UHGV virus genome: UHGV-0180761 | DNA length: 13,254 nucleotides | Source of the DNA: a virus | Direction: 5' to 3' (one strand) | Shown: positions 1,498 through 13,249 of the stretch, in pieces | Layout of the letters: each line of letters begins with the position of its first letter | How positions within the stretch are numbered: the stretch's first letter is position 1 | Notes under the pieces: model-generated | Told to the model about the DNA's origin: nothing | Databases searched by the model: none | What the model saw: the letters and a program-made list of their open reading frames with translations, nothing else | Position numbers and translations under genes: made by a program

Positions 1498-1854
1498 TTA
1501 CTGGTAATCCCCTTCTTCACCGTGGAACTCAAGATCAACCGTGCCTTCTTCGGCATTATGGTTCGCTTCTCCGTGCAGCCAGGCGGACGACAATACATAG
1601 ACCTGACCGTTCGCCAGCTCGGCAGTGATGGTCATCTCATCAGACGAGGTGATTTTGCTCACCGGAAAATTCTTCGGCACCTTGAAGGTCCCTTTGACAT
1701 AAGGCGCACGGTGAGTTTCCTTGCGGTCCACTGAACCGTCCAGGCCGATGATGTCATCATTGACCGTCCTGTTCATGGGCACCTCAATGCCGCCGGTCAG
1801 CGATAGCTGCTGACCGTCAATTTTGAAATAACAGGTTCCCCCGATACGGGCCAT
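1498..1854 (-). CDS. Hypothetical phage protein, 118 aa (possibly a tail-tube-like remnant of the structural module)
   Basis: Clean ORF whose ATG overlaps the stop of the upstream 490-aa ORF (TAATG arrangement), which suggests translational coupling. No diagnostic motif recognised; function is a guess from position. Confidence 0.5.
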   Translation of the reverse strand: MARIGGTCYFKIDGQQLSLTGGIEVPMNRTVNDDIIGLDGSVDRKETHRAPYVKGTFKVPKNFPVSKITSSDEMTITAELANGQVYVLSSAWLHGEANHNAEEGTVDLEFHGEEGDYQ

Positions 1855-3326
1855 TATGCAGACTCCTCTGAATACTGAAGACGGAACTGGTTAACCACGG
1901 CAAAAACACGCAACTGGTTAACATAGTCAGGCGGGAACAGCGTGTTCAGGCGGTTCGGATCGCTGGCATCACGCTCCACAACCAGGTACTGCTTAAACAG
2001 TTCGTAGTTTTCCACGATCCCCGCACGCTCAAGCTGACGGTAGGTTGCCAGCAGTTCCCCTTTGATCACCGCCGGAGTGACAATCGCCTGACCGGGACCA
2101 AAGCGGGTACCGTCACTGGCAAGCTTGTGACGCCCGTACTTACTGGTAATGACGGATTTCAGTTTGCGCAGTACATACGCGCTGGTATGCAGCGTCTCAC
2201 TGTCGAGGTAGCTGTTATCCGCAACCCCGTAAGCGTTTTTCCTGTACGTGGTGACATCACGCTGAATGCGCAGTACCCCGCTTTCGACATACGCCGTTGC
2301 CACGCCATGAGACAGCAGGGTCTGTTGTTCGGTCATCGTGAACCGTTTCCCCTTCGGCGCAGGCAGCATACCCACCAGCTCACCGGTCTGCGTGGGACGT
2401 GCCGGATCGTTGCGGATAAACACCGCTGCGCGGGCGGTACGGCTTGCCGCCAGCTCGTCGGCAGGCGTCTGGGTCTCTTTTTCGTACCCCGCCAGGGTAA
2501 TGTGCTGCTGGTTAAACTGGTCACCTGCGGTCACCAGTTCTGACAGCGTACCGGTCTTTGCCGTATACACATGACCATACAGCTGACGCGCATAGCTCCA
2601 GCGACCGCTGGTATCGTTCATCTCGGTCAGGCGAATTTCGTTTGCCCAGGCTGTCCAGTTCGGTTCTTTGGGACGAACCACCTCGCCGTCACATTCGGCG
2701 GCCTGCTCGTACAGGGCGATGATTTTTTTCCAGAGCCACTGTGCGCAGGTCAAATCATCCTGCGTTCCCCACTGGCGCTTTTTAGGGCTGAATACAACCG
2801 CATCAGGATGGCGAGTTAAAAACTCCTGTTCAGCCGTCTGCGTGTCCGGTTGCGAAGCGTCCGGACGAGAAGTTTTTTTATCTGACGGATCATGTTTTGA
2901 TTTTACTGACGGATCCCCGCCAGATTCTGACGGGTGAAAACCCGCTTTTTTGCCAGATTTCGACGCATCAAATTTTGACGGGTCAGATTTTGATGCGTCA
3001 GATTTTGACGGGTCAGAATCTGACAGTTGAGAAAATGCCGCTGCCTGAAGCTTCGCAACGTTAAGCTGATAAACATTCGACGCATTGCGGTTACCCTGGC
3101 GACGCGCCTTACGCGTTAACCAGCCTTCTGCTTCCAGCCGTGCGATAGCCGTTCTGACGGTACTCATTCCCGCGCCAATCTGGCGGGCAATGGTTTCAAT
3201 TGATGGCCAGCACACACCTTCGTCATTACTGAAATCAGCCTGGCGGGCCATAATTGCCACGCTGGATAATTTCATGCCTGATGCAGCGCAACCATCCCAT
3301 ACATAGCCGGTTAATTTAGTGCTCAT
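1854..3326 (-). CDS. YmfN-like chimeric protein (490 aa): N-terminal winged-helix replication-initiator-like domain, low-complexity repeat linker, C-terminal phage structural or packaging domain
   Basis: ATG at 3326 with AGAGG Shine-Dalgarno; N-terminus has an HTH-like segment (SIETIARQIGAGMSTVRTAIARLEAEGWL); middle is a D/S/K/P-rich repeat; the C-terminal 250 aa look like a phage virion or packaging protein, but I cannot tell sheath-like from terminase-like without a search. Confidence 0.7.
   Translation of the reverse strand: MSTKLTGYVWDGCAASGMKLSSVAIMARQADFSNDEGVCWPSIETIARQIGAGMSTVRTAIARLEAEGWLTRKARRQGNRNASNVYQLNVAKLQAAAFSQLSDSDPSKSDASKSDPSKFDASKSGKKAGFHPSESGGDPSVKSKHDPSDKKTSRPDASQPDTQTAEQEFLTRHPDAVVFSPKKRQWGTQDDLTCAQWLWKKIIALYEQAAECDGEVVRPKEPNWTAWANEIRLTEMNDTSGRWSYARQLYGHVYTAKTGTLSELVTAGDQFNQQHITLAGYEKETQTPADELAASRTARAAVFIRNDPARPTQTGELVGMLPAPKGKRFTMTEQQTLLSHGVATAYVESGVLRIQRDVTTYRKNAYGVADNSYLDSETLHTSAYVLRKLKSVITSKYGRHKLASDGTRFGPGQAIVTPAVIKGELLATYRQLERAGIVENYELFKQYLVVERDASDPNRLNTLFPPDYVNQLRVFAVVNQFRLQYSEESA
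2955..3026. repeat. Tandem repeat, about 5 imperfect copies of a 15-bp unit (GATTTTGACGGGTCA / GATTTTGATGCGTCA), inside the YmfN-like CDS
   Basis: Directly visible: agatttcgacgcatca aattttgacgggtca gattttgatgcgtca gattttgacgggtca gaatctgacag. Encodes pentapeptide repeats (SKSDA/SKSDP) on the minus strand; related degenerate copies continue upstream to about 2893. Confidence 0.8.
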
Positions 3327-10078: not shown

Positions 10079-10576
10079 ATGCCACATTTAGACGAAATTC
10101 GCAGAAAGCTAAGGAAACAATGTCCTACATCCGCAGGCGAGGATGGTGAAGAGTATGCTCTTAAATGGTTAGAAAACTCCCAATGGGAGTTTGTATATGT
10201 CGAACAAGGAAAAACAGACCTATCTAAAAGTTTAAAAATATATGGGGGAAAACGCCCCGATTTTATTATTAAAGTTGATAGTAACACCTTTATTCTTCTG
10301 GATGCAAAGTATCATTCAACAGAGAACTGCACCTCCTTTACACTCACAGAGTGTGAAATAGGTAAGTATCGCGCACTCAAGCAATTTTTAATTAATAAAA
10401 ATAGCGAACTTACGTTCGAAGTGATTTTCATGGTATTTCCAAAAGAAAAAGATGGCAAGAAATTTGTATTTGTTAGTTTGGATGAGTTTGATAAAGGAGA
10501 ATGTGTAACTCTAGCATCAAAAAATGCAACAAAGATTAGTCTACTCAATAGAGATAATTTATGGCTTGACCATTAA
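10079..10576 (+). CDS. Hypothetical protein (165 aa) with a PD-(D/E)xK nuclease-fold signature
   Basis: Motif P60-D61 (GGKRPDFII) followed 14 residues later by hydrophobic-hydrophobic-D-A-K (FILLDAKY), with upstream Glu candidates; AAGGGA Shine-Dalgarno upstream of ATG; located in the AT-rich cargo after int. Confidence 0.6.
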   Translation: MPHLDEIRRKLRKQCPTSAGEDGEEYALKWLENSQWEFVYVEQGKTDLSKSLKIYGGKRPDFIIKVDSNTFILLDAKYHSTENCTSFTLTECEIGKYRALKQFLINKNSELTFEVIFMVFPKEKDGKKFVFVSLDEFDKGECVTLASKNATKISLLNRDNLWLDH

Positions 10577-10865: not shown

Positions 10866-11705
10866 CTATCTAAATCTAACCTCACAAAACCAGTTATTTT
10901 CCGAGAGACAACTATAGAGTGCGGATTGCCAAGAATTTAAGCTTACCGATTTTTTTCCAGCTGCGGTTTCAGTCAAGTATTTTTTTAACTCGATACTCCC
11001 CCCCCCATCGTAAATTCTCTTTGCGATATATTCAATGCTCGCTAGTTCTTCAGCTGCATGTGATGCATAAAGAGCAGACAACTTAAATGCCTTAAAGTGA
11101 TACTTCATACGTTTAGCTAAAAGTGGGGGGCAATCTTCAGGTGGCTCTACATAAAACTCTATCGCTACAGGAATAGATTCCCGTATTTTTGCCTTAACCC
11201 AAACAAATGCTTCTACATCATCGTAATATGGGTGCAAAGTTTCTTCTTCTGAGCAAATTGGGATATCTTCGCTCTTTGTTTTATTACAATCCTGACAGGC
11301 TGGTATAAGATTAAAAGGCGATACAGCCAATGATGGAAAATGTGCTTTAGGTAAGTGATGATCTAATGTCGATACTACTCTTTGAGAACATAGTGGGCAT
11401 CTTCCATGATCTGGAAGTGACATTAACTTGTCATAATAGATACGCCCTGGGGCTAATTTCTTAGCCATTCTGCTTGTATAGACAACCTTCATTTCGTCAA
11501 CTGTAACAACAGTGGCAACATTGTCTTTAGGCAAAATTGTATGTAATTGTGCAATTGATACTTTTGCATCAAATTCTATTGAGGAATCTTCTATTTCTTG
11601 AGAACATGCTATAAGCCTCCTCTTTAAATCTTCATCGCGAACTCGATCAATGCATGCATTAAATACATCCAACGCACTATCATTCGGTTTTAAGAGTTTT
11701 TTCAT
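10866..11705 (-). CDS. HNH endonuclease-domain protein (279 aa), second gene of an ATPase-nuclease operon
   Basis: Zinc-finger HNH signature CPLC(103-106) ... DHHLPK(115-120) ... N132 ... CQDCN(137-141); the ATG overlaps the stop of the upstream ATPase gene (ATGA), so the two are translationally coupled. Confidence 0.8.
   Translation of the reverse strand: MKKLLKPNDSALDVFNACIDRVRDEDLKRRLIACSQEIEDSSIEFDAKVSIAQLHTILPKDNVATVVTVDEMKVVYTSRMAKKLAPGRIYYDKLMSLPDHGRCPLCSQRVVSTLDHHLPKAHFPSLAVSPFNLIPACQDCNKTKSEDIPICSEEETLHPYYDDVEAFVWVKAKIRESIPVAIEFYVEPPEDCPPLLAKRMKYHFKAFKLSALYASHAAEELASIEYIAKRIYDGGGSIELKKYLTETAAGKKSVSLNSWQSALYSCLSENNWFCEVRFR
10998..11006. repeat. Homopolymeric C9 tract (G9 on the coding strand) inside the HNH gene
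   Basis: Directly visible: ctccccccccccatc at 10996-11009; encodes Gly234-Gly236 of the HNH protein. Confidence 0.9.
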
Positions 11706-13249
11706 GATTGGTTTCTCTTAATTAAAAACAAAGCCCGCAAAATACCTCTAGCTTCAATTCCAAGTTGCCCATTGAAATTTTGCACAGCTGAATCGTAATC
11801 TTCGAATTTATTTACAGCATCGTCAAGAAGATTATGGAATCCAGAGTCGGTATTTTCCAATCCAAATACCTCCCTCGTTAGTATACCCACATTTTCACCG
11901 AAAGATTCTGTTTCTAGCCTTTCTACTTTAGACAAGTAGCCACTACGCCACAACTTCCACGTACAGCTTCGAGGAACTTCCTGGAGAACTACAGGAGAGT
12001 GGGTAGCTATTATAGATACTGCATTCCTATTAATTAATAAATCAGAAAGAGACCTTACAAAAGCTGATAATAATGGTGGATGGAGATGAGCTTCTGGTTC
12101 ATCTAAAAAAACCAAGCTTCTTTCTTCCATTGTCTCGACAAGTCTAGTGATAGTTAGCAATACAATTTTGTGCCCGGAACTTAAATTTTTGAATACTCTT
12201 CCTGCAATATCTTTAAACTCATCTTCATCTTGTCTATTCAATATTGATGCTACATTAATGTCAGCAAATACTGGATCTGACTCCAGCTTATCCACAGCCC
12301 TTTTCCAACGTTCAATTTTCCCTCCTGCCTTACAAGAAAGCATACTTTTCACGAATTCATTTTTCAATATAACAGGGCTTTTGGGCGGGAGACTTTTCTC
12401 ATCACCTTTTTTTACTCTTTTTAGTCCCACATATGAAAACTGTATACCTGTAGATTTATCTTTTTTTTCTGATAAAGGTTCTGTTTCATCAAAAGCGCTA
12501 AAAGTGACTGATACTACGTTAGAGAAAAGCTCACCAGCTAGTTGATCTTTAGATGAAAATTCACCGACTTTTGTTGGCGTTGTATTTTCGTCAATTAATG
12601 AACTAATCATATTATTCATTAAATGCGTTTTCCCAACACCATTCCGACCAATTAGCACATGAATATTTGTTGGGGGATTGCTCTCTGGTATCACTTCAAA
12701 ACTTAACTTAATACGGTCAGAGTCAGTGCCTTTCATCACTGGTGAGTTATATGAAAATGAATATTTTGAAAGTCGAGCACCTCCGTTCGCAAGTCGACGA
12801 AACTGTCCCTTAATAGATGTATGGCTGACGGATCTCAGAAGAGATATGCTAGTGACCCTCTCATTTATTGCTTTATTATATATATCTTCACTCAGAGCAA
12901 TATCATTAAGCGATGATAATATTTCATTTCGGATATCTTCTCCTAGTTCATTCAACACTTCGTAAAAACTATCATCTTGACCAACGGAGAAAAAACTCTC
13001 ATCTAGTTTTTCGAAAGCTTCAGGGATACTTGGTCTACTTTGACCTTTCGCCATATTCAATTGGCCAATTTTAGTAGAACCAATAATATTCTTATCCTTA
13101 TTTGAATCTATATAAACCAATGTATACATTGTAGAAAATTCAAACCAGTCATCCCAATTATCAGTAATTAAATAGGCACAGTTAGATTGTTCAACAGAGC
13201 ACATACTTCCCGCAGGCAGCACCTTAAATCTCATCTTTATCCCACTCAT
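11702..13249 (-). CDS. ABC-type (AAA_15/AAA_21-like) ATPase, 515 aa, with an unrecognised 200-aa N-terminal domain; first gene of the ATPase-HNH operon
   Basis: Walker A GRNGVGKT (aa 201-208, nt 12626-12649), signature-like LSSGHK (356-361), Walker B LVFLDEPE (379-386), H-loop ATHSP (415-419). In-frame TAA sits immediately upstream of the first ATG, 5 nt from the window edge, so the promoter is outside the window. Confidence 0.8.
   Translation of the reverse strand: MSGIKMRFKVLPAGSMCSVEQSNCAYLITDNWDDWFEFSTMYTLVYIDSNKDKNIIGSTKIGQLNMAKGQSRPSIPEAFEKLDESFFSVGQDDSFYEVLNELGEDIRNEILSSLNDIALSEDIYNKAINERVTSISLLRSVSHTSIKGQFRRLANGGARLSKYSFSYNSPVMKGTDSDRIKLSFEVIPESNPPTNIHVLIGRNGVGKTHLMNNMISSLIDENTTPTKVGEFSSKDQLAGELFSNVVSVTFSAFDETEPLSEKKDKSTGIQFSYVGLKRVKKGDEKSLPPKSPVILKNEFVKSMLSCKAGGKIERWKRAVDKLESDPVFADINVASILNRQDEDEFKDIAGRVFKNLSSGHKIVLLTITRLVETMEERSLVFLDEPEAHLHPPLLSAFVRSLSDLLINRNAVSIIATHSPVVLQEVPRSCTWKLWRSGYLSKVERLETESFGENVGILTREVFGLENTDSGFHNLLDDAVNKFEDYDSAVQNFNGQLGIEARGILRALFLIKRNQS

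Follow-up and report, generated by a model that had tools for sequence, protein, structure and literature searches.

A nine-base G tract in the nuclease gene of a putative Septu-like operon in Escherichia coli is a likely slipped-strand hotspot and probably an accidental one

Introduction

Septu, which pairs the PtuA ATPase with the PtuB HNH nuclease (PDB 8EE7/8EEA), and the PtuAB modules of retrons Ec78 and Eco7 are the described systems closest to the locus reported here. [quoted passage not shown] In the window that we analysed, by which we mean the whole 13,254-nucleotide stretch of DNA, we found the same kind of ATPase–nuclease pair. Unlike retrons Ec78 and Eco7, the locus has no reverse transcriptase or ncRNA, and, compared with solved PtuB, the nuclease carries about 95 additional residues as a helical N-terminal region. 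In contrast to Septu, its PADLOC class is the candidate PDC-M01, and its anti-phage role is predicted.

Defence systems are costly, and they are quickly lost and regained. Several of their genes are phase-variable: Type I and Type III restriction–modification genes in Haemophilus, Neisseria and Helicobacter belong to this group, mod genes are likewise phase-variable, and pglX of the Streptomyces coelicolor Pgl/BREX system carries a phase-variable G-tract. At such loci both phases are frequent, reversibility has been measured, and the tract is usually 5′-proximal and conserved among strains or species. Here we describe a run of nine G residues in the nuclease gene of the putative Septu-like pair and the alleles of different length that exist at this site in nature, and we weigh whether the run is a switch, an accident or an error.

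Results

A candidate defence operon in an e14-like prophage

The nuclease gene (10866..11705, minus strand) encodes a PtuB-like HNH protein of 279 residues that is identical to WP_000734887.1. In this protein a helical extension at the N terminus precedes an HNH core, which is followed by a helical C-terminal domain, and it is the combination of the last two that characterizes the PtuB fold. The catalytic motif (residues 103–145; 11271..11399, minus strand) was located by Pfam HNH, with 23.0 bits against a cut-off of 21.4 bits, and by alignment, in which C103/C106, D115-H116, N132, C137/C140 and N141 are invariant. The gene lies immediately downstream of one for a PtuA-like ABC/AAA_21 ATPase (11702..13234, minus strand; 510 residues as annotated), the open reading frame of which reaches further upstream, to an ATG at 13249. 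The stop of the ATPase gene and the start of the HNH gene share four nucleotides (ATGA), so the two genes form one operon.

Profile searches placed the two proteins together. The ATPase matched the PADLOC models PDC-M01A (2.9e-210, residues 6–512 of 515) and PtuA PDLC00282 (5e-195, residues 6–511) as well as Pfam AAA_21 (5.4e-20) and AAA_15 (1.1e-9), and its closest sequence relatives in the PDB were the PtuA chains of retron Ec78 (1.3e-5). Its score against the NCBIfam equivalog for retron-type PtuA was 37 bits, the cut-off being 500 bits. The nuclease matched PDC-M01B over its entire length (1.7e-106, residues 1–279 of 279), and the adjacent matches to PDC-M01A and PDC-M01B make up the candidate PADLOC system PDC-M01. 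The best 25 PADLOC matches of the nuclease, in a search that matched 46 families, were to PDC-M01B or PDC-M62B, with no PtuB model among them, and searches of PDB sequences and of NCBIfam with the HNH protein gave no match. Its identity to solved PtuB is 12–16%. The next match scored 6.2, and Foldseek ranked the same solved relatives at the top, but weakly. On these grounds the gene pair is a putative Septu-like ATPase–nuclease defence module that is distant from the characterised ones. A neighbouring open reading frame of 165 residues was considered as a third component of the system and rejected, as it is absent beside homologues in other genera.

The operon lies between icd and intE/xisE in a cryptic e14-like prophage of E. 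coli and Shigella. Elsewhere, too, the window consists of e14-type prophage sequence, which encodes an excisionase, an integrase, YfdQ/YfdR, an S24 repressor and a Pin-type invertase along with remnants of the tail tube and sheath. In E. coli K-12, ymfD, ymfE and lit occupy this slot. The e14 element of K-12 (icd–ymfD–ymfE–lit–intE) and the one described here share the icd integration site and the int/xis module, and both carry defence-type cargo between icd and intE, but the cargo genes are unrelated, with the Lit peptidase in K-12 and the ATPase–HNH pair here. The 2.65-kb operon region is present in 3 of 5,426 complete RefSeq E. coli genomes, at 99.9–100% identity. A megablast search of the phage collection with the operon gave no match, and the literature on the e14 defence hotspot yielded nothing directly usable.

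A nine-base G run near the 3′ end of the nuclease gene

Direct reading of the plus strand at the tract gave …GATACT CCCCCCCCC ATCG…, in which nine C residues occupy 10998–11006; on the minus strand, which encodes the HNH protein, this is a G9 homopolymer. Codon 234 begins at 11006, so that the run is exactly GGG GGG GGG and encodes residues G234–G236. A preliminary description of this DNA had assigned the tract to these positions and codons and had stated that its present length keeps the full open reading frame in register, and direct reading of the sequence and of the reading frame bore out both statements, with the 279-residue frame intact. The tract lies at 84% of the HNH open reading frame, near its 3′ end, and is the longest G/C run of the window, the runner-up having a length of six. 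In 200 dinucleotide-preserving shuffles of the window, the expectation was 0.03 nine-base G/C runs per window, and at least one such run occurred in 6 of the 200. A run of this length is thus unusual in a 13-kb window, but not across a whole genome. The G+C content of the HNH gene is 38%. Four of its six glycine codons are GGG, three of these four being inside the tract, whereas the GGG share in the co-transcribed ATPase gene is 5 of 31 glycine codons.

Slippage by −1, +1 or +2 removes codons 237–279 (10869..10997, minus strand). The C-terminal loss that the preliminary description had foreseen therefore stands, with the exact count being 43 residues instead of about 45. The G8 product gains three alternative residues (239 residues in total) and the G10 product gains nine (245 residues in total); G8 and G11 products end in …GGG(G)VSS before the stop, and G10 products in …GGGEYRVKKILD. 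Because the HNH motif lies upstream of the tract, all frameshift products keep the HNH core. We also considered that the shifted frames might provide an alternative C terminus, as in dual coding, and rejected this, as these frames stop after 3 and 9 codons.

The segment that is lost contains the invariant residues N257, W259 and W272 and the near-invariant residues S258, Q260, Y264 and F278. In a structure model, it comprises the distal half of helix 209–254 together with helices 259–269 and 271–276. The −1, +1 and +2 alleles stop 3–9 codons past the tract and give nucleases of 239–245 residues that keep the HNH core. By analogy with the solved PtuAB and retron-Eco7 structures, distant relatives that are 12–16% identical, residues 237–279 would belong to the helical C-terminal domain by which PtuB docks onto a PtuA dimer, between the C-terminal extensions of the latter, and the shortened nucleases would be unable to assemble with the ATPase. 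We infer that the frameshifted protein cannot dock on the ATPase, which would leave the defence system off.

Natural alleles that differ in tract length

We predicted the products of tracts from G6 to G12 and looked up their exact sequences in a collection of 15 billion proteins. The G9 product (279 residues) was present in 601 index blocks, and the exact ATPase sequence in 651. The G8 product (239 residues; P0121, WP_241223722, an 'HNH endonuclease' of Shigella flexneri/Enterobacteriaceae) was found in 13 contigs, the G10 product (245 residues; P0135, WP_244587702) in 5, the G11 product (240 residues; P0122, WP_272834294) in 1 and the G6 product, which is in frame (278 residues; P0123), in 2; exact look-ups of the G7 and G12 products in this collection found neither. 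Altogether, the natural alleles at the tract are G6, G8, G9, G10, G11, G6TGG(TGT) and G6AGG. Variant loci differ from the window at 1–5 positions in 2,655 bp (at least 99.8% identity), and the indel is at the tract. The tract had been described beforehand as prone to slippage, with a comparison of its length across strains as a means of checking this; the G8, G10, G11 and in-frame G6 products in public data agree with that view, and the presence of several lengths rules out a uniform one.

All three complete RefSeq carrier genomes have G9. Frameshifted alleles amount to 19 contigs, against about 600 G9 blocks and about 70 other full-length occurrences, a comparison that is approximate and in which the units differ. 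The corresponding share of about 3% for the OFF state is rough, as variant loci were sought deliberately and other amino-acid backgrounds fall outside the exact look-ups. The nearest to an unbiased sample are the 24 longest contigs with the exact ATPase, of which 3 carry G8 (all S. flexneri), 1 carries G6 and 20 encode the 279-residue HNH protein. We also scanned JGI metagenome contigs and IMG/VR for the flanked tract at any length; the pattern, which does match the fetched loci, gave 0 matches in each.

In natural lineages, replication slippage has altered G9 on several occasions, by −1, +1, +2 or −3. The G10 allele of locus L014 carries 12113G>A, a marker common to the G9 locus L030, whereas the other four G10 contigs are without it and end exactly at the site of IS1 in the ATPase gene of X14-3, a G9 strain. 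G10 is therefore found on two marker backgrounds, each with a G9 sibling, indicating at least two G10 events. G8 is found on at least four locus haplotypes. One of these, haplotype A, is defined by 12345G>A, 11732delT and 11496C>T, plus 10752G>A where the contig extends that far; another, with 11951G>A and 10709C>T, is shared by five S. flexneri complete genomes, and the SNP pattern of the S. flexneri icd flank differs from that of haplotype A. For G8, two or more origins are probable; the private SNPs radiate like a star from the reference haplotype, a pattern that is also compatible with a single origin. Counting G11 and G6, we found at least five length-change events at one 9-bp site. In clean assemblies, the 2,655 bp outside this site show 14 SNP sites, one other 1-bp deletion, one microhomology deletion and IS1 insertions.

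Other runs in the HNH gene (C6, two A7, A5 and C4) served as controls. Of the ten predicted ±1 products at these runs, two exist, in three Logan contigs: the C6−1 product in two and one A7+1 product in one. The other eight were absent in exact look-ups in the same protein collection. As control slip products are rare, G9 is the dominant slip site, though not the sole one.

Absence of the tract from homologues in other species

We assembled 80 homologous loci, one genome per species; one of them was the S. flexneri G8 copy, and the 79 others were compared with the window. None of the 79 other-species homologues has a G/C run longer than seven anywhere in the gene, and Yersinia is no different. 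The tract is thus not conserved among these orthologues, and we rejected it as a family trait. Whether homologues encode the glycines with mixed codons had been proposed as a check, and they do: the aligned site holds GGT, GGC, GGA, AGT and others, reading GAT GAC GGT GGT AGT in Xenorhabdus (92% amino acid identity), GAA AGT GGT in Enterobacter and GAA GGT GGT in Yersinia. Because the homologue codons differ, the E. coli tract needed four G-ward substitutions in 9 nt. These four changes, two of them synonymous, exceed the expectation from the roughly 7% divergence of the locus. The G-ward excess, together with the use of GGG three times over against the codon usage, could reflect selection for a mutable tract. 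In the alignments only G236 of the three glycines is conserved at 90% or more, positions 234–235 being variable (E/K/D/N/T-S/G).

We also observed three derived alleles that alter base 11000, with which codon 236 begins: a G→T change (G236W), a G→A change (G236R) and G→T combined with A→T at 10997 (G236W/S237C), the last in about 30 index blocks. They share a haplotype (12056A>T, 11723A>G, 10908T>C) to which G9 genomes belong as well. Each of these variants breaks the run to G6 and replaces the sole conserved glycine. They may reflect a mutational hotspot, selection that stabilises the tract or selection that alters the protein.

Accidental hotspot or selected switch

Considering these data together, we favour, with a rough probability of 0.6, the reading that G9 is a real slipped-strand hotspot of a Septu-like nuclease gene and that it is accidental rather than a selected reversible switch. 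The tract would then be an accident of the E. coli allele, and no other single route would disable the system as often. The absence of the tract from homologues, an ON share of about 97% and the occurrence of OFF alleles beside other lesions argue against a selected contingency switch.

The alternative that survives best, although we regard it as unlikely, is that G9 was selected for stochastic and reversible ON/OFF expression of a costly or self-toxic Septu-like nuclease, by which a lineage would hedge phage protection against autoimmunity or against the uptake of useful DNA. A more specific form of it, which seems to us somewhat more doubtful still, is that second-order selection, acting through the four G-ward changes, made the tract an evolved switch by which lineages turn an autoimmune-prone defence system off and back on, with the nuclease uncoupled from the ATPase and not eliminated. 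The tract has the form of a phase-variable locus, being a slippable run in which a change of length shifts the frame, and its length is polymorphic among near-identical strains, with more than one origin and several independent events. The G-ward changes relative to the nearest homologues and the improbability of three GGG codons from the codon usage of the operon also favour selection, and G-tract phase variation of defence genes has precedent. Moreover, in about four of the roughly seven OFF lineages the ATPase is apparently intact, so that these alleles could in principle revert, which is compatible with a switch able to turn back on.

Other observations weigh against selection of the tract as a switch. 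OFF alleles make up approximately 3% of occurrences, whereas both states are common at classical contingency loci, and the small haplotype network shows no sign of an OFF-to-ON reversion. The run is missing from the 79 other-species homologues, derived alleles that interrupt it exist, and it is not 5′-proximal, so the HNH domain is still made after a slip. Several OFF alleles also occur beside further damage. In haplotype-A G8, a frameshift also removes the last nine residues of the ATPase; at the G8 locus L010, about 63 bp of the ATPase gene are missing through a microhomology deletion; and one G10 lineage lies in an operon with IS1 in the ATPase gene, where G10 arose after IS1 had killed the ATPase, as in neutral drift. 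An independent allele, P0056, has IS1 inside the HNH gene itself. With about three of the seven OFF lineages carrying a second and irreversible lesion in the ATPase, the pattern looks like decay, not switching. E. coli is proficient in mismatch repair, which keeps slip rates at nine-base runs well under those of classical phase-variable species, at least approximately; the literature on run-length indel rates in E. coli yielded nothing directly usable.

It is improbable that the three glycines are merely tolerated and that length changes are neutral in a system already non-functional in its hosts. The variability of residues 234–235, the existence of an in-frame G6 allele and the cryptic, degraded state of the prophage would all fit such neutrality. 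However, the full-length HNH protein and the ATPase are intact and near-invariant in about 600 indexed occurrences, and the C-terminal residues that a slip removes rank with the family's most conserved positions. An intact, near-invariant pair with a conserved C terminus points to purifying selection that maintains the ON state.

A tract that is stable in vivo, with the G6, G8, G10 and G11 records being homopolymer miscalls, would be still harder to reconcile with the data, and we consider it very improbable. Homopolymers are a classic error site of long-read and some short-read chemistries, and assembly error had been put forward from the start as the other explanation of the tract. G11 is on one assembly only, and G6 is on one assembly and one SRA run, perhaps of the same sample; both alleles are less secure than G8 and G10. 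Rare C6 and A7 slip products also occur in Logan contigs, two of the S. flexneri G8 assemblies (L005 and L006) are error-rich, and another assembly (L029) contains 19 columns with indels, several of which fall in A/T runs. Yet the tract in L029 reads G9, and two further S. flexneri G8 assemblies (L007 and L034) are without private indels besides the tract, so that at least two complete genomes with this haplotype are clean. Haplotype-A G8 recurs with its linked SNPs in four independent datasets (two NCBI and two Logan short-read assemblies), and G10 recurs in five datasets on two backgrounds. Apart from one linked delT, homopolymer indels elsewhere in the 2.6-kb region are absent from clean assemblies. 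That G8 and G10 recur together with linked SNPs in independent datasets from NCBI, ENA and Logan indicates that they are inherited alleles, not read errors. Likewise, because G9 is the modal length in public data and keeps the conserved C terminus in frame, the G9 of the window is not an assembly error.

Least credible of all is slippage of RNA polymerase or the ribosome on G9 that yields a fixed ratio of full-length to truncated HNH protein: bacterial transcription can slip on long homopolymers and the truncated product would keep the nuclease domain, but the known efficient bacterial slippage sites are A/T runs, the alternative frames, which end after 3 and 9 codons, hold no conserved sequence, none of the 79 other-species homologues examined has the tract, and natural alleles are fixed at G8 or G10, so the variation is genomic.

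Discussion

As a probably accidental hotspot, the locus illustrates in E. coli and Shigella, in a form that is easy to score, how a defence system may be lost, with a nine-base run as the commonest disabling route alongside IS1. There are practical consequences for annotation. The G8 and G10 products have ordinary WP_ accessions and the name 'HNH endonuclease', and defence predictors and pangenome analyses will score these alleles as present, although, by analogy with the solved complexes, they probably encode an uncoupled nuclease. Real alleles could be 'corrected' in error when homopolymers in long-read assemblies are polished. [quoted passage not shown]

Like pglX and the phase-variable restriction–modification genes, the locus has a poly-G run in the reading frame of a putative defence gene, a ±1 change in the run shifts the frame, and the length of the run varies among near-identical strains. 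Unlike them, it has an OFF share of about 3%, a 3′-proximal tract, a single allele lineage and a host proficient in mismatch repair. Two other bacterial examples concern different organisms and genes. For Bordetella pertussis, microevolution of homopolymeric tracts is reported, without proven adaptive switching (PMC1891110). For glpK of Mycobacterium tuberculosis, reversible frameshifts are reported, with both reversion and a phenotype demonstrated, in which respect it differs from the tract examined here (bioRxiv 10.1101/717272). The tracts of B. pertussis and glpK resemble the G9 tract in that they are coding homopolymers that vary among clonal isolates and give rise to truncated proteins.

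Sequence variation within the HNH nuclease gene

The G9 tract that encodes the tri-glycine of the HNH nuclease is also altered by substitution. Independent changes were found at base 11000 in codon 236, with G to T giving G236W and G to A giving G236R (public operon loci L111, L112 and L113). Either change interrupts the run and replaces the sole conserved glycine of the three. The three loci all lie on a single clonal haplotype, which also includes G9 genomes. A double allele, G236W with S237C (11000 G to T together with 10997 A to T, codons 236-237), was present in about 30 index blocks, the units of occurrence in the protein collection. The changes at base 11000 may reflect a mutational hotspot, or selection that either stabilises the tract or acts on the protein itself.

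We also found products predicted from slippage at two shorter runs, a coding-strand C6 run at codon 192 (window 11125-11130) and an A7 run at codon 250 (window 10950-10956). The 195-residue product of losing one C was present in two short-read (Logan) contigs and the 264-residue product of gaining one A in one such contig. The existence of these products therefore indicates that lower-level slippage, or error, occurs at shorter runs too.

Insertions and neighbouring genes

IS1 insertions recur within and near the ATPase-HNH operon (loci L002/L025 and L003/L028; protein variant P0056). One interrupts the ATPase gene at window ~12690-12704 in strain X14-3 and in four metagenome or SRA contigs. 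Another lies inside the HNH gene at codon ~164 (window ~11215) in P0056, where the reading frame continues into what we take to be the end of IS1. IS1 has replaced most of e14 in X14-3 and in genomes carrying G8 haplotype A, and in EC06 it adjoins a 165-residue ORF, on the side of intE.

This ORF (10079-10576, plus strand) lies between intE and the HNH gene and drew no match from searches of Pfam, PADLOC and NCBIfam. A PD...D-A-K stretch in its sequence (RPDFIIKV...LLDAKYH) is reminiscent of PD-(D/E)xK nucleases. The ORF and the operon occur together only in E. coli/Shigella e14 contexts; the ORF is absent beside homologues of other genera. Elsewhere in the window, a 490-residue ORF (1854-3326, minus strand) has a winged-helix/HTH_36 region near its N terminus (residues 30-80), followed by phage tail-sheath domains (residues 234-481), and looks like a fusion generated by deletion in the degraded prophage.

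The two ends of the ATPase gene

The ATPase ORF remains open for five codons further upstream (window 13235-13249), with an ATG at 13249, whereas the RefSeq start is at 13234. The window stops five bases past this ATG, so the operon promoter region lies outside it. At the other end, G8 haplotype A carries a 1-bp deletion of T at window 11732, in ATPase codon ~501 (loci L004, L008, L012 and L013). The ATPase thereby loses its last nine residues, its end changing from ...LRALFLIKRNQS to ...LRACF. By analogy with PtuA, these residues would be the C-terminal extension that holds PtuB, in which case both lesions of this haplotype would strike the presumed interface.
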